A DNA stretch of 64,000 nucleotides from Escherichia phage vB_EcoM_FT. Both the position numbers and the translations under genes were made by a program. Each line of letters starts with the position of its first letter. The first letter of the stretch is position 1. The stretch lies in the sequence record MT682710.1. The stretch is one strand, 5' to 3'. This document shows positions 46,309 to 58,755 of the stretch, one piece after another. The notes beneath the pieces are model-generated. The model saw nothing but the letters and a program-made list of their open reading frames with translations. It was not told where the DNA came from and did not search any database.

Positions 46309-46779
46309 TTAATCATGTTTCCACACCCCATCGGTATTTGACCAAAGCCGCTGATTATCTGATCCTCGCCACAGCTTTTTAGTCGGAAGATTTTTCTCAT
46401 ACTTCCCATCAATAATAACATCAACATATTTAAGCATTTCTAGCTGTTTAATATCTTCAAACTTATATCCTGTCCACAACCAAATGCTTTTATTGGGATA
46501 AAGATTTTTTACTGTTTGAACAATGCAATGAATAACATCTCGGTTATCAGGATAGAGAGGGTCTCCTCCAGTTATAGTTAATCCTTCTATATAATCATTA
46601 TTCAAACATTCAATTAATTGCTCTAGTGTCTCTCCAGTGAATGGAATACCATTTCTAGCATTCCATGTTGATTTATTATAACACCCTTCGCATTTATGCA
46701 AACAACCCGTAACGAAAAGAACGACCCTGCACCCAGGGCCATTCACAAAATCACAGGGATAAAATCTATCGTAATTCAT
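46309..46779 (-). CDS. nrdG: anaerobic ribonucleotide reductase activating protein NrdG
   Basis: 156-aa ORF; cysteine cluster CLHKCEGC; coupled to nrdD. Confidence 0.9.
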   Translation of the reverse strand: MNYDRFYPCDFVNGPGCRVVLFVTGCLHKCEGCYNKSTWNARNGIPFTGETLEQLIECLNNDYIEGLTITGGDPLYPDNRDVIHCIVQTVKNLYPNKSIWLWTGYKFEDIKQLEMLKYVDVIIDGKYEKNLPTKKLWRGSDNQRLWSNTDGVWKHD

Positions 46780-48593
46780 TGGTGTTTAACCCTATGCATG
46801 ATTTCTTTATTTTTACCGAGATTAAATCCGCGTTCATTCGGATTTCCCAAATAACCACATGTTCTTCTTATTGTGTTCATCTTTTTAGGATCAGTTTCTC
46901 CACAGATAGAACAAACAAATCCGTTTTCAGTAGGAGTCATTTCATGGGTACTTCCGCATGTAAAACACTTATCTACTGGCATATTAACACCAAAATAATC
47001 TAAATGCTGTGCAGCATAATCCCACACGGCCTCAAGACCTTTTAAGTTATTTTTCATATCAGGAAGTTCAACATAAGAAATGTGACCACCTGTCGCAATG
47101 AAATGATATGGTGCTTCACGAGAAATCTTTTCAAACGGAGTAATATTTTCTTCTACTGAAACATGGAAACTGTTAGTGTACCAACCTTTATCGGTAACAT
47201 CCTTTACACTTCCATATTTTTCGGTATCAAGTTTACAGAAGCGATAACAAAGGTTTTCAGCAGGAGTAGAATACAAGCTAAAAGCAAAACCAGTTCTTTC
47301 AGTCCACTGCTTAAGACGAGCATTCATTTTAGTTAAAATTTCTTGTCCAATATCACGACCGACAAGAATATTCAATTCGTGAATACCAATGTATCCTAGG
47401 GACACTGAACTTCTACCGTTTTTAAATAACTCAATTATGTCGTCATCAGGTTTAAGACGAACCCCGAATGCACCTTCTTGGTAAAGAATAGGAGCAACAG
47501 TTGCTTTAACTCCTTTTAAGGAACTAATTCTACACATCAAAGCTTCAAAACATAAATCCATTCGTTCATTGAATAATTCAACAAATTTCTGTTCATTGAA
47601 CTGTGTTCCAATATAAGAATCTAACGCAATACGAGGAAGATTCAGTGTTACAACACCAAGATTATTACGTCCATCAAGAATTTCATTACCAGTCGAATCT
47701 TTCCATACGCTCAAGAAACTACGGCAGCCCATTGGAGAAACAGGAACAGATGAACCAGTGATAGCTTTATTGTTCTTAGCTGAAATAATATCAGGATACA
47801 TTCTTTTGCTTGCGCACTCTAAAGCAAGCTGTTTAATATCATAGTTCGGATCGTCTTTATAAAGATTAACACCTTCTTCAACGAACATAACAAGTTTAGG
47901 GAAAATAGGAGTTATCCCATCACGACCAAGACCTTTAATACGATTTTTCAGAATTGCTTTCTGAATCATTCGTTCAGTCCAGTCAGTTCCCGTACCAAAT
48001 GTAATTGTTACAAAAGGCGTTTGTCCGTTTGAACTAAAGAGAGTGTTTACTTCATATTCATAAGCTTGAAATGCATCGTATACGTCTTTTTCTGTTTTAG
48101 ATTGAGCATAATTCAACGCATCAGCGATTTGCCATTTTTCTGCATCCTCAATATGTTTTGCATATGTGCGTTTAACATAAGGAGAAAGTACTTTATCTAC
48201 ATTCGCAAAAGTCGTTCCGCCATATTGATGGGAAGCAACCTGTGCAGTAATTTGTGCCATAATTGCAGTAGCAACGCCAATTGATTTAGGAGTTTCAATC
48301 TGCGCATTACCGAGCTTAAATCCGTTCTCAAGCATTCCTTTTAAATCTACTAAACAGCAATTAGTAAATGGAAGAGCAGGGGAATAATCAATATCATGGA
48401 AATGAATAATTCCGCTTTCATGCGCTTTCATAATAAAAGACGGGACCATATTTTTGGCAATGTGTTTAGACACAATACCAGCCATAAGGTCCCGTTGAGT
48501 TGGAAAAACACGAGAATCTTTATTAGCATTCTCGTTCAAAAGGTCTTTATTGGTTTTATGAATCAATCCTTCAATTTCTTTTTCAATTGTCAT
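46776..48593 (-). CDS. nrdD: anaerobic ribonucleoside-triphosphate reductase NrdD, uninterrupted
   Basis: 605-aa continuous ORF; C-terminal zinc ribbon CFTCGS...CSICG and glycyl-radical region. Confidence 0.95.
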   Translation of the reverse strand: MTIEKEIEGLIHKTNKDLLNENANKDSRVFPTQRDLMAGIVSKHIAKNMVPSFIMKAHESGIIHFHDIDYSPALPFTNCCLVDLKGMLENGFKLGNAQIETPKSIGVATAIMAQITAQVASHQYGGTTFANVDKVLSPYVKRTYAKHIEDAEKWQIADALNYAQSKTEKDVYDAFQAYEYEVNTLFSSNGQTPFVTITFGTGTDWTERMIQKAILKNRIKGLGRDGITPIFPKLVMFVEEGVNLYKDDPNYDIKQLALECASKRMYPDIISAKNNKAITGSSVPVSPMGCRSFLSVWKDSTGNEILDGRNNLGVVTLNLPRIALDSYIGTQFNEQKFVELFNERMDLCFEALMCRISSLKGVKATVAPILYQEGAFGVRLKPDDDIIELFKNGRSSVSLGYIGIHELNILVGRDIGQEILTKMNARLKQWTERTGFAFSLYSTPAENLCYRFCKLDTEKYGSVKDVTDKGWYTNSFHVSVEENITPFEKISREAPYHFIATGGHISYVELPDMKNNLKGLEAVWDYAAQHLDYFGVNMPVDKCFTCGSTHEMTPTENGFVCSICGETDPKKMNTIRRTCGYLGNPNERGFNLGKNKEIMHRVKHQ

Positions 48594-50608: not shown

Positions 50609-50998
50609 TTAATCCAAAATATTATTAGGCATTGGTTGAACACTCGCAAGTTCTTTAAAGAACTCAGTAGAGTCAGGTAATTTAACCATTTCCGGAGCAT
50701 GCTTACTAAATTTATGTTTGCAATGACGGCATTTATATTCAAGTTCCGGTTTACGCCAGTTAATCAATTGAACTTGTTCAGTACCGCATTCAGGACAATT
50801 AGGAACGTTTTTAGAAGCCCTTTCGCGACGTTCAACCATAACCATAATAGCATCCCAGGCTGGAGGTTTAAAATCTAAATCATCACAACCATGAATCTTT
50901 CCGCGCATTTCCAGATCGTCTTCTTCACCAGCCATAATAATTTTAATTAGACTGGAATTACTTGAAGCTGCAATATCTTCTAATAGACGCTTTTTCAT
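50609..50998 (-). CDS. zinc-ribbon protein
   Basis: 129-aa ORF with CPECG-x18-CRHC motif. Confidence 0.55.
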
Positions 50999-51924
50999 TT
51001 CAATACCTCAATAGCATTACGTAAACCATTTGCTTTTGCATTAAGAGCTTTTAACAATTTAGTGTGTTCGGCAATCTGAGCTTCAACTTCAACTAGTCGA
51101 GATTTGAGGTATTCACGTTCTTCGCTCAAGTTATCAATCTTTTCTACTTTAGGCTCTTTTACAACTGTCTTATATGTATTAGGGTTCTTCAGTTTAATTA
51201 AAATGCGTGAACTGTATAACATTGAACCATTATCTTCGGTTTCGTCATACATTTCTACTACGTCCATGATTTTTAACATCATGCGGAGTTTATAAGATAA
51301 CGAACGAATAGTTTTGTTGTGCTTATTAATTTCTCTAGAGTTCATGGTGCCGAGATTACGTGAGTAATAATAAGGAACCTGGATATTAATTAATACTGAT
51401 GAACCACCTGGCTTGTGTGTTACTTCATCAGCAATAACCCAATCCTTAACATGAACTGTATTTGTACGGTCATCGCCCGCGGTAAATAGTTTGCGAGCAT
51501 GCTTAAAAAGCATATTCACTTGGTCATTGAATTGACAAGCAAATTTATCAGCAAATTTAGTTTCAGGAATGGTAGATAACCAATCAGCCAAATGAGTCTT
51601 TTTAACATCGTTAACAATAGTAAATTCAACCAAATCAGTTATAGATGTCTCAGATTTAATAAAGCTCGGCTTCATAAAGTTTTTAATGTTATCGCGAGCT
51701 ACAGTAGAAGATAACATACGAGAACGTTTAAACCATTGAAGCAAATTGCCCAACGAATGAGAATAAGCGTTTTGAGTATCTTTACAGATATGATTTTCCT
51801 GGCCAACATATTGAAGGAAATCACGAAGAATATTATTGATTACTGCCCTGTGTCCGATCTGATAATTACGGTGTTTAGTAATAAGACTGTCAAAATAATC
51901 AATATAATGTTTACGAGTTTTCAT
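50995..51924 (-). CDS. coiled-coil protein, paralog family member A
   Basis: 309-aa ORF; N-terminal MKTRK; C-terminal coiled coil; internal LRMMLKIMDVVEMY block. Confidence 0.6.
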   Translation of the reverse strand: MKTRKHYIDYFDSLITKHRNYQIGHRAVINNILRDFLQYVGQENHICKDTQNAYSHSLGNLLQWFKRSRMLSSTVARDNIKNFMKPSFIKSETSITDLVEFTIVNDVKKTHLADWLSTIPETKFADKFACQFNDQVNMLFKHARKLFTAGDDRTNTVHVKDWVIADEVTHKPGGSSVLINIQVPYYYSRNLGTMNSREINKHNKTIRSLSYKLRMMLKIMDVVEMYDETEDNGSMLYSSRILIKLKNPNTYKTVVKEPKVEKIDNLSEEREYLKSRLVEVEAQIAEHTKLLKALNAKANGLRNAIEVLK

Positions 51925-51976
51925 GTTCTTCTCACTTGGTTAATGATTTATACTCCGAGCCATCCTTGGCTTTAAA

Positions 51977-52978
51977 TTACTTAATTAACTGTAAAGCTTG
52001 TTCCAGACGATCAAGACGATTAACAGATTCTTCCCAAATCCTTTTAGCCTGCTCATATTCTTTCTGCGCTTTATTAGAAATTTCTAGAACTTCTTTATAA
52101 GCTTTTTCTAGTGCAATAACTTCTGGACGAATTTCTACCGGTTCAGGTGAATCGTCAAGACATTCCATTAGTTCCTCAAGGGTAGTTTCTTCTTTAGGAG
52201 TATTCACAATTTCATCACATTTTTGTTGGTAAATTTCTTTATCAGTAGGTGAATAAGCACATTTCACTTCACGAAGACTAATTACAATTTTATATCCTTC
52301 CCAACCGCATATATTCTTAAAAGGATAAGTATGAATATTTTCTACTGTTTCCATACAAAGTAATGCGGTCTCTAATTGACGAGTTATAGTGCTAGCAATT
52401 GAGAAAAATTTATTAATATTCTTTTGGTTAGTTTCTGGTGTAAAAAATCCATAATTCACAAAAATAGATACTTTATTTTTATCAAGTTCATATTCTTTTA
52501 CGATAATCATATCAGAAGCCAAAGGATGAATTTGACGATAATCGCCATAACATAATTTAGAAGCTGATTTTAGAATTTGTCCTTTGAAAAGTCTGAAATT
52601 ACTAATCCAACGACGAGTAAAAATATTCTCAGGGTCTTCTTTATTATTAAGATGATAAGAATTAACATCACCGAACCAATTATATCCTACTACATCTTTA
52701 GTTCGTTTAATTTCTTTCCCAAAATTACCAAGAATATCCCGATTAACCAAATATGAAAGAAGACGAGACTCTTTAAAGGTTTTCTTGATAAGATCTTTAT
52801 CTACACGACTAGAAATTTTACGAATTTCATGAATAAATTTAGTAGAAGAAACAATACTTGCATCAACACTATTGAGCCATTGATTGATAATAGAAAGAAC
52901 GATATTTTGACCAAACATCGGTATAGCTTTATCATCAATAACGCTATTGAATGATTTGATATATTCGTTACGAGTCAT
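51977..52978 (-). CDS. coiled-coil protein, paralog family member B
   Basis: ATG at 52978 (MTRNEYIKSF) with GAGGAG RBS; longer track ORF would start inside promoter 53007..53036; C-terminal coiled coil. Confidence 0.6.
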   Translation of the reverse strand: MTRNEYIKSFNSVIDDKAIPMFGQNIVLSIINQWLNSVDASIVSSTKFIHEIRKISSRVDKDLIKKTFKESRLLSYLVNRDILGNFGKEIKRTKDVVGYNWFGDVNSYHLNNKEDPENIFTRRWISNFRLFKGQILKSASKLCYGDYRQIHPLASDMIIVKEYELDKNKVSIFVNYGFFTPETNQKNINKFFSIASTITRQLETALLCMETVENIHTYPFKNICGWEGYKIVISLREVKCAYSPTDKEIYQQKCDEIVNTPKEETTLEELMECLDDSPEPVEIRPEVIALEKAYKEVLEISNKAQKEYEQAKRIWEESVNRLDRLEQALQLIK

Positions 52979-53006
52979 ATTAATCTCCTCAGTAGAAAGT
53001 AAGAAC

Positions 53007-53036
53007 ATTATACCACATCCTTGTGGCAAAGTAAAC
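53007..53036 (-). promoter_or_regulatory. early promoter (GTTTAC-N18-TATAAT)
   Basis: near-identical to promoter at 7732..7761 (ccacatccttgtgg spacer). Confidence 0.55.
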
Positions 53037-54058
53037 TAGTTCAGTGCATTTAGTGCATTGTTCAGTTTAGAACGTTGCTTTGTCAGATTTTGAACCCTTG
53101 ACTGAGCTTGTTCTAACGCCTTTTCAGCTTCTAGCACTTCATTGGTCGCTTTAACGAGTTCATCATCTACTGCCTTAAGAGACTTCTCAATCGCATCCGC
53201 GTGCCATTTTTCAACAGGTTTAAGACTCGGATTTTCAACAGGAAGAAAATTCACTTTATTGAATTTCCATGCATCTTTATTACCTGAACTATACATCCAA
53301 AATTTAGGATCGTTTGATAAGTAATTGGATAAATTTAAGTTATCTTGTACTTCTTGCTTTTTCTCTTGCGGGACTTCGTCCTTTCTCAAAAATTCATATT
53401 TAAATGAAACGATCATATCAAGTTCATATGATGTTGTATCTAACTTAAATCGTTCAAAACGAGGTAAAATCTTAGATTGAACAGCAGCAACAACATCCAT
53501 ATACTTAAATGCTTCTGTCAACTGTGATTTAAGGCATTCACAAATTGAAAGAGAATTTTTTGTATTAGGTTTAAAGCTAATTCGTGCAGTTCTATTATTT
53601 TCTTTTAACGGTCTTACTTCCATCTGAAGAGTATAACCATCAAATTTCAGGTTCTTTAAGTTAATATCAGAACCTTTTAATCGACTAGCAGTAGACAAAA
53701 TTTGCTTTAATTGTTTACGGAATAGAGCAATAAATCTCCATTCAAGACGATAATGATTTGGATTGAAAAATCCAGATGATAAATCGACCTTACTCTGACC
53801 AACGCCTTGAACAAATAGAGGATTTTTATAATCAATAGTTTTACAGAAATCGGTGAGCTGCTCACGAGCAGTCATTTGTGTAATATATCCTGCTTCGCTA
53901 AAATTACGCACCCATTCGCTGCTGTTCAAATGTTTAAAGGCATGAATGGAACAATTAACTTTACCAAGGTCTAAATTATTTTCGCACAAAAATGTCATAG
54001 CATCACGAGTATAACTGGCATTACGAACCATATCTTCAATTTGAGAACGAGTTTTCAT
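53036..54058 (-). CDS. coiled-coil protein, paralog family member C
   Basis: 340-aa ORF; N-terminal MKTRSQ; FKYMDVVAAV block; C-terminal coiled coil. Confidence 0.6.
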   Translation of the reverse strand: MKTRSQIEDMVRNASYTRDAMTFLCENNLDLGKVNCSIHAFKHLNSSEWVRNFSEAGYITQMTAREQLTDFCKTIDYKNPLFVQGVGQSKVDLSSGFFNPNHYRLEWRFIALFRKQLKQILSTASRLKGSDINLKNLKFDGYTLQMEVRPLKENNRTARISFKPNTKNSLSICECLKSQLTEAFKYMDVVAAVQSKILPRFERFKLDTTSYELDMIVSFKYEFLRKDEVPQEKKQEVQDNLNLSNYLSNDPKFWMYSSGNKDAWKFNKVNFLPVENPSLKPVEKWHADAIEKSLKAVDDELVKATNEVLEAEKALEQAQSRVQNLTKQRSKLNNALNALN

Positions 54059-54066
54059 AGTGTTCC

Positions 54067-54969
54067 TTAAGATTTAAGTAAATCAACAATTTTAATTAAC
54101 TTTTCACGCTCAGATTTAGCTTTACTACTCAATCCAGATAGTCTGAAAATTTCATCATCATATTGCTGAATAGAAATATTTAGCTCTTCAATCTGCTTAT
54201 TAAAATAAGCAATTTGTTCAGAATGTTTTTCATTACTGCGAACTGGTACAGGTTTTGTAGGTAATTTAGATGAACTGGATTCATCCGGGCGATAAATTAA
54301 AATGCAATTTGAACCAATCGGACATTTAGCACCAGACACATATTCTAATGTTCCAGCTTCTTTTAAAATTTCAAAAGCTAAACAGAGATGATGACCCATA
54401 TTGGCATAATCTGTAGAGTGAGCTCTGACGTAATAATCATCTCCACGAGTGCTAAATTTAAAGCATTTAAGGTCTTCTGTATTATTGGTCTTAAAAATCA
54501 TTTGTTTATCTAGACCTTTAGCTAATCGAGCACCTAATGCTAATAATCGTCGTTGATTTTCCCACAAATCTGCGATCATTTGGTCAAATGATAATTTCGG
54601 CATTAGTCGACCATAAAGGTCGTATCCTTTATTATAATTGCGAAGGATTTCACTCGCATTAATACGAGACAATGCTCCAATTTTATTAAGGGCTTTCATA
54701 ATGCGATTAGATAAACCCATTCCAGACCCGTTTGTTCGCTGCAAATGTTTTTCTAATCCAAATCCAATATCAACTTTAAATTTATCTAAAATTTCAGCAT
54801 GAACATCTCTGTCAATAACATTCAAATCCAAAGTTGGGTTAAATCTATGAAAAAATTTATCTGGCTCTCCACGACGAAGTACAGTCCATTCATTTAATTT
54901 TTTATTAACTAAAGATTTAATTACTGCATTGACATTATTAATTACTACTGACATATTTTCCTCACTCAA
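54067..54969 (-). CDS. coiled-coil protein, possible divergent family member D
   Basis: 300-aa ORF with C-terminal coiled coil; weaker similarity to A-C. Confidence 0.55.
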   Translation of the reverse strand: MSEENMSVVINNVNAVIKSLVNKKLNEWTVLRRGEPDKFFHRFNPTLDLNVIDRDVHAEILDKFKVDIGFGLEKHLQRTNGSGMGLSNRIMKALNKIGALSRINASEILRNYNKGYDLYGRLMPKLSFDQMIADLWENQRRLLALGARLAKGLDKQMIFKTNNTEDLKCFKFSTRGDDYYVRAHSTDYANMGHHLCLAFEILKEAGTLEYVSGAKCPIGSNCILIYRPDESSSSKLPTKPVPVRSNEKHSEQIAYFNKQIEELNISIQQYDDEIFRLSGLSSKAKSEREKLIKIVDLLKS

Positions 54970-55376: not shown

Positions 55377-55431
55377 AATAATCTCAATTAAAAGGGCTTA
55401 GAACCATTATACCATCCTTGGTATAAAGCGG

Positions 55432-55959
55432 TTATGCGAGTACCGTCTTTAACCGTTCTTCAAACTTCCGAAGAGTATTTTGGCGTTCAGCTCTTTGCTT
55501 TTTGTAAGTTTCAATACGCTCTGAAATGAGAGTGTATCGTTCATTTACTGATTCTTTCATAAAATCAGGAATTTCACGAGAAGCTTTAATCTCGTCAAAT
55601 TTATCAATAACAGCTTGCTCTTCAGCAATTAAGTTATCATACATTAAAATATCTTTCTTGATGAACTCAATATCTTCTTGAGTTACACGAGATAATTTAG
55701 ATGCTTTATCCTTTTTGTACTGTTCGTTAGTATCACGAGACCAGTGCAATGTACGATTTTTATTCGTATTCTTGTAAATTTCTACAATACCAATCTCATC
55801 GATAATAACGATCCAATTCCAACGAGATTTGTAAATTTGTCCTCCGTCAACCGTGATTTCACCTCCGATTGAGATGTCATTAAAGAACTTGCTTTGTGCT
55901 TCTGATTTAAATTTACCATCGTTGTAATTTACCAGGTTGAAAATATCTTTAGCGTTCAT
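55432..55959 (-). CDS. hypothetical protein with C-terminal coiled coil
   Basis: 175-aa ORF behind promoter/leader cassette 55961..56017. Confidence 0.55.
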   Translation of the reverse strand: MNAKDIFNLVNYNDGKFKSEAQSKFFNDISIGGEITVDGGQIYKSRWNWIVIIDEIGIVEIYKNTNKNRTLHWSRDTNEQYKKDKASKLSRVTQEDIEFIKKDILMYDNLIAEEQAVIDKFDEIKASREIPDFMKESVNERYTLISERIETYKKQRAERQNTLRKFEERLKTVLA

Positions 55960-56424: not shown

Positions 56425-57393
56425 TTATTTCAGAAGAGTAACCTCAGCGATTTCTTGCCAACCATTTTTGTCGGTCATAATAAAGTCAGCAAGATAAAGT
56501 GCAGTACGCAGTGAAACATTGCGTAAACGGTTAACATTGACTTTCATCCATGATAATGCTTTATAAGTTTCTTCATCAGAAAGACCGCGCTTTTGCATCA
56601 TGTCGGTTGAAAGAATAACATCTTCAACCCTGACCATAATTTCTTCATTAGTGTGAACACCCAAATCTAAATAAACTGAGCGGGACACTAATGCTTGTAA
56701 ATGTGGAGCAAGTTTAGTACCACGGTCTAATTCGCGGTCAATGTCAACGTTTGTGATAAAAACAATCGTTCCTTTAAATTCAAACTCACGCTCAATGCCT
56801 TTTTCTTCTAAGTAAGAAGATGCAGTGCTCCAGCAGACTTTACGGGTCTCTCCGGTGTCCAGAGCGGCTTTTAGAAGATTAAGAATGTCCATATCAGAGA
56901 AAACATCCACATCATCAATCAAAAGGACAGAATTCTCTTCACGATTATTCCAGAGCTGTTCATAAAGACCAATACCAGAGATTTTACCGTTAATGCTTTT
57001 ATATTCAATGTATCCATTATCATTTGCTTTATTCAAAGCTTTATCTAAAGAATACGTTTTACCAATACCCGCCGCACCAGAGATAATTAATGAACGAATG
57101 TTTCCGTTAATAATACCATTCGTCATCATTCCCATAACATTAAATCTTTTATTAATGCGGGTTTTCATATCTTCATATGATTCTTTAACTTCTTCAACTT
57201 TTACACCATCATATGAAATGTCTGATTTGTAAACCCAAACACCGCGACGTTTACCGTCAATTTCAACAAAAACTTTACCATCTCCTTGTGCATCTACCGG
57301 AGCATTATCTGGGAACCATTCACCTAAGAGCTCAAAAGTTCCAGAGATTTCTTTACCGAAGTAGATACCCTTATTGATAGTTACAGTTTTCAT
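56425..57393 (-). CDS. AAA+/P-loop ATPase
   Basis: 322-aa ORF; Walker A GAAGIGKT, Walker B LLIDDVD; about 100-aa N-terminal extra domain. Confidence 0.7.
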   Translation of the reverse strand: MKTVTINKGIYFGKEISGTFELLGEWFPDNAPVDAQGDGKVFVEIDGKRRGVWVYKSDISYDGVKVEEVKESYEDMKTRINKRFNVMGMMTNGIINGNIRSLIISGAAGIGKTYSLDKALNKANDNGYIEYKSINGKISGIGLYEQLWNNREENSVLLIDDVDVFSDMDILNLLKAALDTGETRKVCWSTASSYLEEKGIEREFEFKGTIVFITNVDIDRELDRGTKLAPHLQALVSRSVYLDLGVHTNEEIMVRVEDVILSTDMMQKRGLSDEETYKALSWMKVNVNRLRNVSLRTALYLADFIMTDKNGWQEIAEVTLLK

Positions 57394-57450: not shown

Positions 57451-57651
57451 TTATTTTGACATTTCTTCGATGTCACGACGATACCCGTCACGAACTTCAC
57501 GAAGAGCTTCAAGGCCACACATAGGCTCGATACCAGTAATGTGAACTTGATTAATCTGATACTCTACATCTTCTAACTGAGCGAAAACATAACGACGTTC
57601 AGCTGCACAACCAGATTTAGCTTTACCGAAACGTTTATTCAAAGTAGTCAT
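57451..57651 (-). CDS. hypothetical protein
   Basis: 66-aa ORF behind promoter 57690..57719. Confidence 0.45.
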   Translation of the reverse strand: MTTLNKRFGKAKSGCAAERRYVFAQLEDVEYQINQVHITGIEPMCGLEALREVRDGYRRDIEEMSK

Positions 57652-57689
57652 TTTGTATCTCCAATTTACTCATTTGTTTTGATAGGTCT

Positions 57690-57719
57690 ATAGTATCAAC
57701 AACTACAGACCATGTAAAC
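57690..57719 (-). promoter_or_regulatory. early promoter (GTTTAC-N18-TACTAT)
   Basis: upstream of 57451..57651. Confidence 0.5.
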
Positions 57720-57722
57720 AAT

Positions 57723-57986
57723 TTATTTTAATTTTCGCCAAATTTTTACTGCTTCTCGCCTCGATACTTCTACGGCGCCAAGTTCTATAGCTTTTTGACG
57801 ACGACTTGCACGTAAGTCATAATGTTTAATGCGTTTATCTTGAAACCAAGAACGTTTCATTCCTATTGCTTCTGCCATTTCGTGAAGCTCTTCAATATCT
57901 CCATCAGTGAACATATGACAATTTTTAGTTGGATGACCGCGAAGTTTCCATCCATGATTCATTAAAACATCTACGTAAACTGTCAT
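57723..57986 (-). CDS. hypothetical protein
   Basis: 87-aa ORF; preceded by an untracked 49-aa ORF (about 57983..58132) with overlapping stop/start. Confidence 0.5.
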   Translation of the reverse strand: MTVYVDVLMNHGWKLRGHPTKNCHMFTDGDIEELHEMAEAIGMKRSWFQDKRIKHYDLRASRRQKAIELGAVEVSRREAVKIWRKLK

Positions 57987-58168
57987 TGATTCTTCTCCAA
58001 ATAAGTTTCGATAATTTTCTGGGCGAGATAAACCGCGTTATCTTCAGTTGCGTCTTCTAAGAAACTTTCAAAACACTCTGAAATTTCTTCTGTATCAATC
58101 AACTTTTTTACTTCAATTGGTGTAATTTTCATTTTGTTTTCCGTTTAAGTGTTTGTTTTGATAGTTGT

Positions 58169-58198
58169 ATAGTACCATAAAGCTTTATGCTTGTAAAC
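58169..58198 (-). promoter_or_regulatory. early promoter, downstream copy of the direct repeat flanking the ART-like ORF
   Basis: GTTTAC-N18-TACTAT; preceded by hairpin and repeat gtaaacaactttgtgaaaaatttttgaaataaaaa. Confidence 0.55.
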
Positions 58199-58254
58199 AA
58201 CTTTGTGAAAAATTTTTGAAATAAAAAGGGGACCTCTAGGGCCCCTTTATGCTT

Positions 58255-58755
58255 TTATTCCATTTCTATTATATGCATGCTCTTTTTGCTATCAAAATAT
58301 ATGTTTTTAACTGTTAACTCCGAATTAATTGGCAATAAAAACTCTCTTTCATAATCCACCATAGAAAGATTATCATAAAGCTTATTAAGCTTATCATCAT
58401 CAATCTGGCCAGATTCTTCAATTGCGATTAAATTTTCTAAAATTTCAATCATAGCAGTTGAATAGTCAAAAACGTTTGCATTTTTTAACACTATTAAAAC
58501 ATTAGTCATATAGCGTTCTGCTGCAAATGTTTCAGCTATATGGGATTCACTACTAAAGGAAGTTATTCTTTTAAATTTGATTCTCCTATTAACTTCAAAC
58601 TTATGAGATAGTACTTCCTCTATTGTAAGTCCTCTAAAAAGTACGTCTTTAATCTCAAGTTTGTCTTTAATGTAATCATTAACACGCTTATGATTAAAAT
58701 CATTAATTTTGTTGCCAAGGCATTTCATTAAAATATGCATTGTGTTTCTCTTCAA
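58255..58755 (-). CDS. putative mono-ADP-ribosyltransferase (ModA/ModB-like R-S-ExE signature)
   Basis: 166-aa ORF; LFRG (R41), SFS (66-68), EREFLLP (136-142), spacing nearly identical to ModA in this window; flanked by promoter-hairpin direct repeats. Confidence 0.5.
   Translation of the reverse strand: MKRNTMHILMKCLGNKINDFNHKRVNDYIKDKLEIKDVLFRGLTIEEVLSHKFEVNRRIKFKRITSFSSESHIAETFAAERYMTNVLIVLKNANVFDYSTAMIEILENLIAIEESGQIDDDKLNKLYDNLSMVDYEREFLLPINSELTVKNIYFDSKKSMHIIEME

Follow-up and report, generated by a model that had tools for sequence, protein, structure and literature searches.

The nrdC.3-nrdC.6 array

The 64,000-nucleotide stretch of Escherichia phage vB_EcoM_FT analysed here (record MT682710.1; hereafter the window, with positions counted from its first letter) contains an array of four consecutive genes, nrdC.3, nrdC.4, nrdC.5 and nrdC.6, all on the minus strand. 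The 3,975-bp array stretch was matched by 656 T4-like phage records in a megablast search, the top match being Escherichia phage slur03 (98.2%). The source phage is a Tequatrovirus and the array is its nrdC.3-nrdC.4-nrdC.5-nrdC.6 block. The gene order of the window is T4-like: nrdD, gene 49, pin and the 49.x genes, nrdC, nrdC.1, nrdC.2, nrdC.3-nrdC.6 and nrdC.7-nrdC.10. The members of the array are:

50995-51924, minus strand: nrdC.3, 309 amino acids (aa); family member with a hypervariable allele; phrog_1435 (E 2.7e-116)
51977-52978, minus strand: nrdC.4, 333 aa; member with the best structural model; phrog_1435 (E 1.1e-168)
53036-54058, minus strand: nrdC.5, 340 aa; orthologue of the T4 anti-Dsr1 protein; DUF7235 (PF23882), phrog_2351
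54067-54954, minus strand: nrdC.6, 295 aa; most divergent member; phrog_2257, homologues with PF26899

An earlier note, made from the sequence alone, had described four consecutive genes at this place, and the minus-strand open reading frames (ORFs) were confirmed at 50995-51924, 51977-52978, 53036-54058 and 54067-54969. The length of 300 aa that it gave for nrdC.6 stems from an upstream TTG and has to be corrected to 295 aa: the start is the ATG at 54954, with a GAGG ribosome-binding site ahead of it, and annotated homologues have the same length. The ATG of nrdC.4 at 52978 has a GAGGAG ribosome-binding site in front. The same note had proposed a shared basic N-terminus. An M(K)TR start is indeed common to nrdC.3, nrdC.4 and nrdC.5, as well as to Marfa gp080 and Lazarus orf117, but nrdC.6 does not possess the MKTR sequence.

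Relationship of the four proteins

Profile comparisons indicate that nrdC.3-nrdC.6 are diverged tandem paralogues of one family confined to T4-like phages (Straboviridae), whose homology signal comes mostly from the protein body and not from the C-terminal helix. Direct comparison by BLASTP revealed a single significant pair among all candidate proteins, nrdC.3 and nrdC.4 (26% identity over 226 aa, E 4e-8). Both give full-length matches to phrog_1435, and homologues of nrdC.4 carry PF26897. The nrdC.5 protein covers the whole DUF7235 profile (positions 1-307 of 307, 410.5 bits at a cut-off of 30), which was matched by none of nrdC.3, nrdC.4 and nrdC.6. In both Pfam and PHROGs, nrdC.3/4, nrdC.5 and nrdC.6 are represented by three separate families.

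These families are connected through their profiles. The nrdC.3/4 and nrdC.5 profiles were aligned by hhalign over 146-235 colinear columns (P about 1e-5). A bridging profile was constructed from five homologues, encoded by Klebsiella phage Marfa, Enterobacter phage IME523, Edwardsiella phage PEi20, Kosakonia phage 305 and Pectobacterium phage PM2; these genes are single-copy in other Tevenvirinae genera and lie just upstream of nrdC.2, the position of nrdC.3 here. Marfa gp080 is matched by the hidden Markov models (HMMs) of both nrdC.3/4 (E 4.8e-12) and nrdC.5 (E 8.7e-9). In hhalign the bridging profile was aligned over 204-230 colinear columns with each of the three families: nrdC.3/4 (96.2% probability, P 2.5e-9), nrdC.5 (97.9%, P 3.6e-13) and nrdC.6 (97.0%, P 1.2e-10). 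After removal of the last 60 residues the respective P-values were 4.8e-6, 8e-4 (the weakest) and 4.9e-7. Body-only HMMs, each built with one family left out, were searched over 359 ORFs of the window; nrdC.4 (6e-8), nrdC.3 (0.02) and nrdC.5 (0.01) were each the top non-training ORF, and nrdC.6 was not recovered in this search (E 0.53). The similarity proposed for the four genes was therefore found by BLASTP for nrdC.3/nrdC.4 and by profiles for all four, while the remaining pairs gave nothing significant in BLASTP. When the nrdC.3/4 HMM was run against 1.84 billion representatives, nine hits were obtained, none of the nrdC.5 or nrdC.6 type, which shows, as far as sequence searches go, that the nrdC.3/4 family is narrow and that library-wide E-values are too strict to judge paralogy.

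Two short segments of the protein body are aligned between the families:

52532-52576, minus strand: family core motif ILKSASKLCYGDYRQ, nrdC.4 aa 135-149, aligned across the families by hhalign
51463-51513 (nrdC.3), 53657-53701 (nrdC.5) and 54487-54546 (nrdC.6), minus strand: core-motif equivalents, from hhalign
52334-52375, minus strand: conserved block LETALLCMETVENI of the earlier note in nrdC.4, from the nrdC.4/nrdC.5 profile alignment
51247-51288 (nrdC.3) and 53480-53521 (nrdC.5), minus strand: conserved-block equivalents

The nrdC.6 version of the core motif is the invariant NQRRLLALGARLAxGxDKQMxFKT. The conserved block, which had been noticed from the sequence alone, was borne out by an unbiased profile-profile alignment in which nrdC.4 aa 202-215 and nrdC.5 aa 180-193 are paired residue for residue; it lies where one of the long helices of the central domain ends.

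A further ORF of 175 aa (55432-55959), corresponding to nrdC.8, had been credited with a similar coiled coil. It was rejected as a fifth member: its hhalign P-values to every family are 0.25-0.64, the C-terminal-module HMM gives E 20, there is no heptad signal, and its ratio of nonsynonymous to synonymous substitution rates (dN/dS, 0.055) is unlike that of the array. The protein also has a long C-terminal helix and yet scored in none of the homology tests, so that it served as a negative control.

The related loci considered for nrdC.5 comprised five from IMG/VR, supplemented by GenBank records. The genes themselves and one function were already known; the literature searched made no mention of the family-level link, the spread in Straboviridae or the fold resemblance. 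No paper was found that presents nrdC.3-6 as one family or describes their fold; the T4 review of Miller et al. (2003), which may note the nrdC.3/nrdC.4 similarity, was not covered.

Predicted structure

The nrdC.4 protein was modelled with AlphaFold2 from a 32-sequence alignment (predicted local distance difference test, pLDDT, 83; predicted template modelling score, pTM, 0.67). The model consists of the following consecutive elements: (i) six N-terminal helices (aa 3-84), followed by three short strands; (ii) a long helix, 119-140, bearing ILKSASKLCYGDYRQ, the most conserved motif of the family; (iii) a hairpin, 158-174, and another long helix, 185-208, with the conserved block at its end; (iv) a second hairpin, 212-235, then two short helices in a low-confidence linker; and (v) a 48-residue terminal helix, 285-332. 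The proteins of the family are thus predicted to begin with a bundle of helices, followed by the central alpha/beta domain (nrdC.4 aa 86-240; 52259-52723, minus strand); a flexible linker then leads to a long amphipathic helix at the C-terminus. The nrdC.5 model, built from a shallow alignment, was used for the order of secondary-structure elements only, which is colinear with that of nrdC.4, and its BFVD matches were taken as hints.

Foldseek comparison of the nrdC.4 model with viral predicted structures returned 19 hits at E <= 1e-3, all of them uncharacterised Straboviridae proteins of about 155-375 aa (mostly 280-375 aa) from phages of Yersinia, Pectobacterium, Enterobacter, Acinetobacter, Klebsiella, Erwinia and Serratia. 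Among the matches were an nrdC.3-type protein (E 4.8e-8) and the nrdC.6 of phage JS10 (E 6.9e-5, probability 1.0, TM-score 0.36-0.41). Two hits in Acinetobacter phage Acj61 fit, by length, the adjacent genes p120 and p121, located between nrdC and nrdC.10; tandem copies would therefore recur at this locus in a different subfamily, a link that is structural and not sequence-based. The Acinetobacter proteins (Lazarus orf117, Acj61 p120/p121) reach at best P 8e-5, with a merged profile, against the enterobacterial families, and their membership is suggested mainly by Foldseek and little by sequence.

A PDB sequence search matched only designed helical repeats, at the N-terminal helices, and these matches were judged compositional. 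Separately, two libraries give weak matches of nrdC.3 aa 30-86 (51667-51835) to the SAM-like DNA-binding domain found at the N-terminus of tyrosine recombinases (Pfam, E 0.079; NCBIfam PRK00283, E 0.0013); the scores lie far under the curated cut-offs.

The C-terminal helix

Each protein of the array ends in a predicted long helix:

50998-51114, minus strand: nrdC.3 C-terminal helix/coiled coil, aa 271-309; heptad score 0.88, dN/dS 0.15
51980-52126, minus strand: nrdC.4 C-terminal helix, aa 285-333; single AlphaFold2 helix 285-332, heptad score 0.79, dN/dS 0.07
53039-53218, minus strand: nrdC.5 C-terminal helix, aa 281-340; AlphaFold2 helix 281-339 (59 residues, pLDDT 69-91), heptad score 0.88
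54070-54219, minus strand: nrdC.6 C-terminal helix region, aa 246-295; ends in EREKLIKIVDLLKS, dN/dS 0.02

The heptad score, a home-made and crude measure, is above that of shuffled sequences for nrdC.3, nrdC.4 and nrdC.5 (0.79-0.88, reached by <=1% of shuffles; 1% for nrdC.3 and 0% for nrdC.5). For nrdC.6 it is borderline (0.67) and not significantly above the shuffles, so the C-terminal heptad coiled coil described earlier holds for three members and, by this score, not for nrdC.6. When the C-termini are right-aligned, a P-V-E-x-x-H/Y helix start is common to nrdC.5, nrdC.6 and the bridging proteins. The family also has a common ending, (Q/E)R-x-K-L-x-x-A-hydrophobic-x-x-L-K, of which EREKLIKIVDLLKS is the nrdC.6 version, and hhalign aligned the nrdC.6 C-terminus to that of the bridging family.

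In each protein the strongest constraint falls on this helix (dN/dS 0.02-0.15). An HMM of the C-terminus built from all families matches exactly the four array genes. Of the leave-one-family-out versions, only that for nrdC.5 recovered its target (E 0.0019), and generic coiled-coil ORFs score like the other members. The C-terminal module as a separate homologous domain was thus downgraded to a motif-level resemblance, as the leave-one-out test fails for three of the four families. The earlier picture of a constant C-terminal module joined to a variable N-terminal domain is upheld by the substitution rates and fails for the module as a separately provable domain. The helix probably forms a coiled coil that makes the protein oligomeric, and it may serve as a conserved oligomerisation module.

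Evolution of the array

Values of dN/dS were calculated by the NG86 method across 10 Tequatrovirus genomes. Gene-wide ratios are 0.29 for nrdC.3, 0.22 for nrdC.4, 0.18 for nrdC.5 and 0.11 for nrdC.6, compared with 0.007-0.06 for gp49, nrdC, nrdC.1, nrdC.8, nrdC.9 and nrdC.10, so that the array lies 3-30 fold above its flanking genes. In the body of nrdC.3, nrdC.4 and nrdC.5 the ratio is 0.10-0.42, with the maximum of 0.42 at nrdC.3 aa 66-130, and the core-helix region of nrdC.6 (aa 76-160) is as constrained as its C-terminal helix (0.03). In no gene or region of the array did dN/dS exceed 1. The diversifying selection suggested in the earlier note was consequently not confirmed: the ratio is raised yet remains below 1, both gene-wide and regionally.

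The divergence of nrdC.3 is of a different kind. The protein is 60% identical to T4 nrdC.3 and 75-79% identical to the Mosigvirus copies, and the adjacent nrdC.2 has 129 aa here versus 104 aa in T4, at 80% identity. Genes outside nrdC.2-nrdC.3 are 96-100% identical to T4, except nrdC.7 at 90%; nrdC.5, located between nrdC.6 and nrdC.4 in T4 as well, has 96.2% amino acid identity. The synonymous divergence (dS) of nrdC.2 and nrdC.3 is 0.6-0.7, versus 0.09-0.22 outside the segment. Positions 50609-51924 (nrdC.2 and nrdC.3) thus look like a mosaic segment in which alleles were replaced by recombination. Since the dS of nrdC.3 is high (0.61), its divergence would reflect old alleles exchanged by recombination and not fast local evolution.

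Copy number varies between genera. Tequatrovirus has four copies; Mosigvirus, Dhakavirus and Gaprivervirus have three, Acj61 has two, and Marfavirus, Kanagawavirus, Mosugukvirus and Lazarusvirus have one each, and some genera retain one intact family gene together with remnants. The variation in copy number and divergence among T4-like genomes that had been predicted for this family was accordingly observed. Rearrangements of the array were also identified: (i) a deletion in Tequatrovirus ACG-C40 (L006 6805-7216) leaves 71 codons of nrdC.5 as a stub fused with the tail of nrdC.3; (ii) the metagenomic protein P0119 is an nrdC.5::nrdC.3 chimera without nrdC.4, its junction lying at a short FN..VN microhomology; (iii) about 83 residues are tandemly duplicated inside nrdC.6 of Shigella phage Sf25 (P0120, 378 aa).

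The fragment nrdC.1-6 could be removed from T4 in a CRISPR genome-reduction study (PMC9825161). Given this removal and the natural deletions in ACG-C40 and P0119, the array genes are dispensable on laboratory hosts.

Expression signals

Two promoter-like sites were identified in and near the array:

53007-53035, minus strand: putative sigma-70 / T4 early-type promoter ahead of nrdC.4; consensus match (TTTACT, 17 nucleotides, TATAAT with TG, 10/12)
55406-55429, minus strand: MotA-type middle-promoter-like site upstream of nrdC.7 (GCTT, N14, TATAAT)

The early-promoter-like site, read from 53035 to 53007, is followed by the GAGGAG ribosome-binding site of nrdC.4, and a T4 early promoter is annotated at the same nrdC.5/nrdC.4 junction in the SA21RB record. 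The earlier suggestion that one member has its own early promoter is therefore supported by a consensus match as well as by annotation, and the site is regarded as a putative promoter. The SA21RB record also has a T4 middle promoter at the nrdC.7 site and an early promoter before nrdC.8. Because gene spacing is tight, the nrdC.7 site likely feeds nrdC.6 and nrdC.5 too. The gap between nrdC.6 and nrdC.5 is 8 nucleotides, an AAGGA ribosome-binding site overlaps the stop codon, and the two genes are translationally coupled. Taken together, these signals suggest early and middle transcription of the array.

The 10-mer CCAAGGATGG occurs exactly twice in the 64 kb, at 51960-51969 and 55412-55421 on the minus strand, in both cases just upstream of a TATAAT-like box, ahead of nrdC.3 and nrdC.7, respectively. 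A variant, CACAAGGATGTGG, is located inside the nrdC.4 early promoter. The element may be a common promoter spacer or a relic of duplication. The idea that the promoter-like spacer upstream of nrdC.3 is a duplication relic was set aside, the 10-nucleotide core that it has in common with the nrdC.7 promoter region being too short.

Function and alternative explanations

In the work of Srikant et al. (eLife 2022, PMC9391042), plating on E. coli ECOR17 was not possible for an evolved T4 clone carrying a compensatory deletion, and T4 nrdC.5 expressed from a plasmid restores the infection of cells carrying Dsr1, a defence sirtuin that depletes nicotinamide adenine dinucleotide. According to a 2026 preprint (PMC12803255), the major capsid protein of the phage triggers the tetratricopeptide-repeat (TPR) sensor that Dsr1 and Avs7 have in common. 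Other Avs receptors are reported to sense tail terminator, tail tube and connector folds (PMC12803255). The nrdC.5 gene of the window matches the DUF7235 profile over its full length, occupies the same position as the T4 gene and is 96.2% identical to it, and is therefore its orthologue; the anti-Dsr1 activity belongs to the T4 protein and may extend to the present allele. The remaining members have less than 25% identity to T4 NrdC.5 and belong to other families (PF26897, PF26899), and since they are this distant and fall into other Pfam and PHROG families, the target of NrdC.5 cannot be assumed for nrdC.3, nrdC.4 and nrdC.6.

The explanation favoured here, to which a probability of roughly 60% is assigned, is that the products of the array are made early, probably form oligomers and silence host immune sensors by binding them ahead of the appearance of their late triggers. 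According to this scheme, four diverged duplicates would be made early, ahead of the late structural proteins, and the NrdC proteins would block, through direct protein binding, the sensors that would otherwise detect structural proteins. NrdC.5 would act by binding the sensor of Dsr1, much as DSAD1 binds that of DSR2, and nrdC.3, nrdC.4 and nrdC.6 would inhibit other defence systems or other variants of Dsr1/Avs7-type sensors. The variable N-terminal and central parts would then constitute the recognition surface. The earlier proposal of anti-defence effectors is in this way sustained for one member, through the 96.2% identical T4 nrdC.5 and its action against Dsr1, and may extend to the other three by their membership of the family.

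A working analogy, with no homology expected, is offered by DSAD1 of SPbeta-like Bacillus phages, which counters DSR2 and is likewise a phage protein directed against a SIR2-domain NADase defence. DSAD1 binds the sensor region of DSR2 and competes with the structural-protein trigger, and a similar binding of Dsr1 by NrdC.5 may be supposed. The two differ in host, phage family and target, DSR2 sensing the tail tube and Dsr1 the capsid protein. A second comparison can be made with the anti-defence clusters of T-even phages, namely the dmd-tifA-adfA "anti-TA (toxin-antitoxin) island" and the anti-OLD gp49.2. Like the array, they consist of small, early, non-essential genes in plastic regions and are lost or amplified under selection. 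However, the inhibitors of these clusters are unrelated single genes, whereas the array is one scaffold duplicated up to four times. The T6 gene 49.2, whose product inhibits the OLD defence nuclease (PMC13096335), corresponds to a gene next to nrdC, about 1 kb from the array.

Several observations weigh against the favoured explanation. All dN/dS values are below 1, so that an arms race is suggested, not demonstrated, and nrdC.6 (0.11, core 0.03) is more conserved than a fast-moving effector should be. An experimental function is available for one of the four members, in T4 rather than in this phage. The nrdC.5 model is poor (pLDDT 51), the C-terminal module is statistically inseparable from generic coiled coils across the families, and the case for oligomerisation comes from heptads plus one isolated helix in a model of the monomer.

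The strongest alternative is considered unlikely: only nrdC.5 would act in counter-defence, and the other three would have drifted to other host-takeover roles or become near-functionless neutral cargo in a plastic region. A function has been demonstrated for nrdC.5 alone, all four genes are deletable, and a raised dN/dS below 1 could equally be the product of relaxed constraint; the weak recombinase-domain matches at the N-terminus of nrdC.3 also fit a different role. On the other hand, the four reading frames are intact in hundreds of genomes and each protein has strongly constrained segments (C-terminal helix 0.02-0.15; nrdC.6 core 0.03), which together argue for a selected function. In addition, homologues are kept at the same locus across Straboviridae genera with different hosts.

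An explanation by structural mimicry is more doubtful still. The central domain would be an exapted tail-terminator or neck fold, and the early mimics of virion proteins would act as decoys saturating fold-recognising immune receptors ahead of the real structural proteins. That the domain descended from, or converged on, the terminator/neck fold and that the paralogues jam TPR sensors of the Dsr1/Avs7 type, Avs15 and others, is considered improbable. The resemblance of the central domain to the terminator fold in the model is suggestive but weak, and unrelated alpha/beta proteins score nearly as well as terminators. No sequence similarity connects the array proteins to the tail terminators (lambda gpU, T5 p142, SPP1 gp17-like, Mu, R-pyocin collar): there was no Pfam or PHROG match to terminator families and no PDB sequence match, and hhalign gave no link to T4 gp13, gp14, gp15 or gp19 (P 0.11-0.79; gp3 lay outside this comparison). 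Moreover, tail terminators are late, essential virion genes without an N-terminal helical bundle or a C-terminal coiled coil, whereas the array proteins carry both and their genes are early, judging by the promoter matches, and dispensable. Finally, the one known target, Dsr1, senses the capsid protein and not the terminator.

That the resemblance is a coiled-coil or low-complexity artefact among unrelated neighbouring genes is very improbable and largely refuted, since, despite the single BLASTP pair, the three Pfam and PHROG families and the C-terminal module that fails leave-one-out in three of four families, the homology persists without the last 60 residues, is colinear over 200-230 columns, returns left-out nrdC.3, nrdC.4 and nrdC.5 as top hits of body-only HMMs, is joined by an independent Foldseek link from nrdC.4 to nrdC.6, and is absent from the helix-bearing control nrdC.8.

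Neighbouring genes and annotations

Many GenBank and UniProt entries for nrdC.3-nrdC.6, and even for nrdC.10 and nrdC.11, carry the label "thioredoxin". Pfam and NCBIfam profile scans gave no match to a thioredoxin or reductase family for nrdC.3-nrdC.6 or nrdC.8. As no thioredoxin family matches the four proteins, these labels appear to be inherited from the gene name. The same appears to hold for nrdC.8, which was treated as a nucleotide reductase in a 2026 paper. In Acinetobacter phages, the neighbours of the family members, Lazarus orf118 (L007 16214-16798) and Acj61 p123 (L020 19863-20438), are labelled "seryl-" and "histidyl-tRNA synthetase", at a length of only about 190 aa; these labels may be a coiled-coil artefact, and the genes might be counterparts of nrdC.8.

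The nrdD gene (46776-48593) is a single uninterrupted ORF of 605 aa, while T4 nrdD is split around an annotated homing endonuclease gene; the source phage appears to be without the insertion that interrupts nrdD in T4. The product of nrdC.10 (56425-57393) is a P-loop NTPase with weak STAND/AAA matches (nSTAND3 E 1.2e-4, AAA_16, AAA_22), conserved as far as Acinetobacter phages. Beyond nrdC.10, at 57451-58755, there are ORFs of 66, 87 and 166 aa that are absent from the T4 locus and present in ACG-C40, where the corresponding position, matched by position and length only, holds a DUF4031 gene and a ModB-like RNA polymerase ADP-ribosylase.

In Aeromonas phage AS-gz (L009 14205-15683) a nicotinamide phosphoribosyltransferase (NAMPT) gene lies in the nrdC.11-nrdD interval, the place of the array in T4-like coliphages. 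This gene, of the type that counters defence by rebuilding nicotinamide adenine dinucleotide, fits the locus as a general slot for counter-defence cargo against immunity that depletes this cofactor.

Significance

Most T4 early genes are still without a function, and counter-defence proteins are usually found singly. The placement of NrdC.5 in a four-member family yields three testable candidates for immune inhibitors, nrdC.3, nrdC.4 and nrdC.6, to which many homologues from phages of Klebsiella, Enterobacter, Acinetobacter, Serratia and Pectobacterium can be added. All of these candidates could be used as probes for their cognate defence systems, in the way that T4 deletions revealed Dsr1 in ECOR17. 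If the mimicry explanation were true, a virion building block would have been turned into a duplicated, oligomeric decoy scaffold that is expressed early, and the array would be the phage counterpart of the bacterial pattern-recognition repertoire. The allele diversity of nrdC.3 and the natural deletions of the array may also help to explain host-range differences among near-identical therapeutic T4-like phages.

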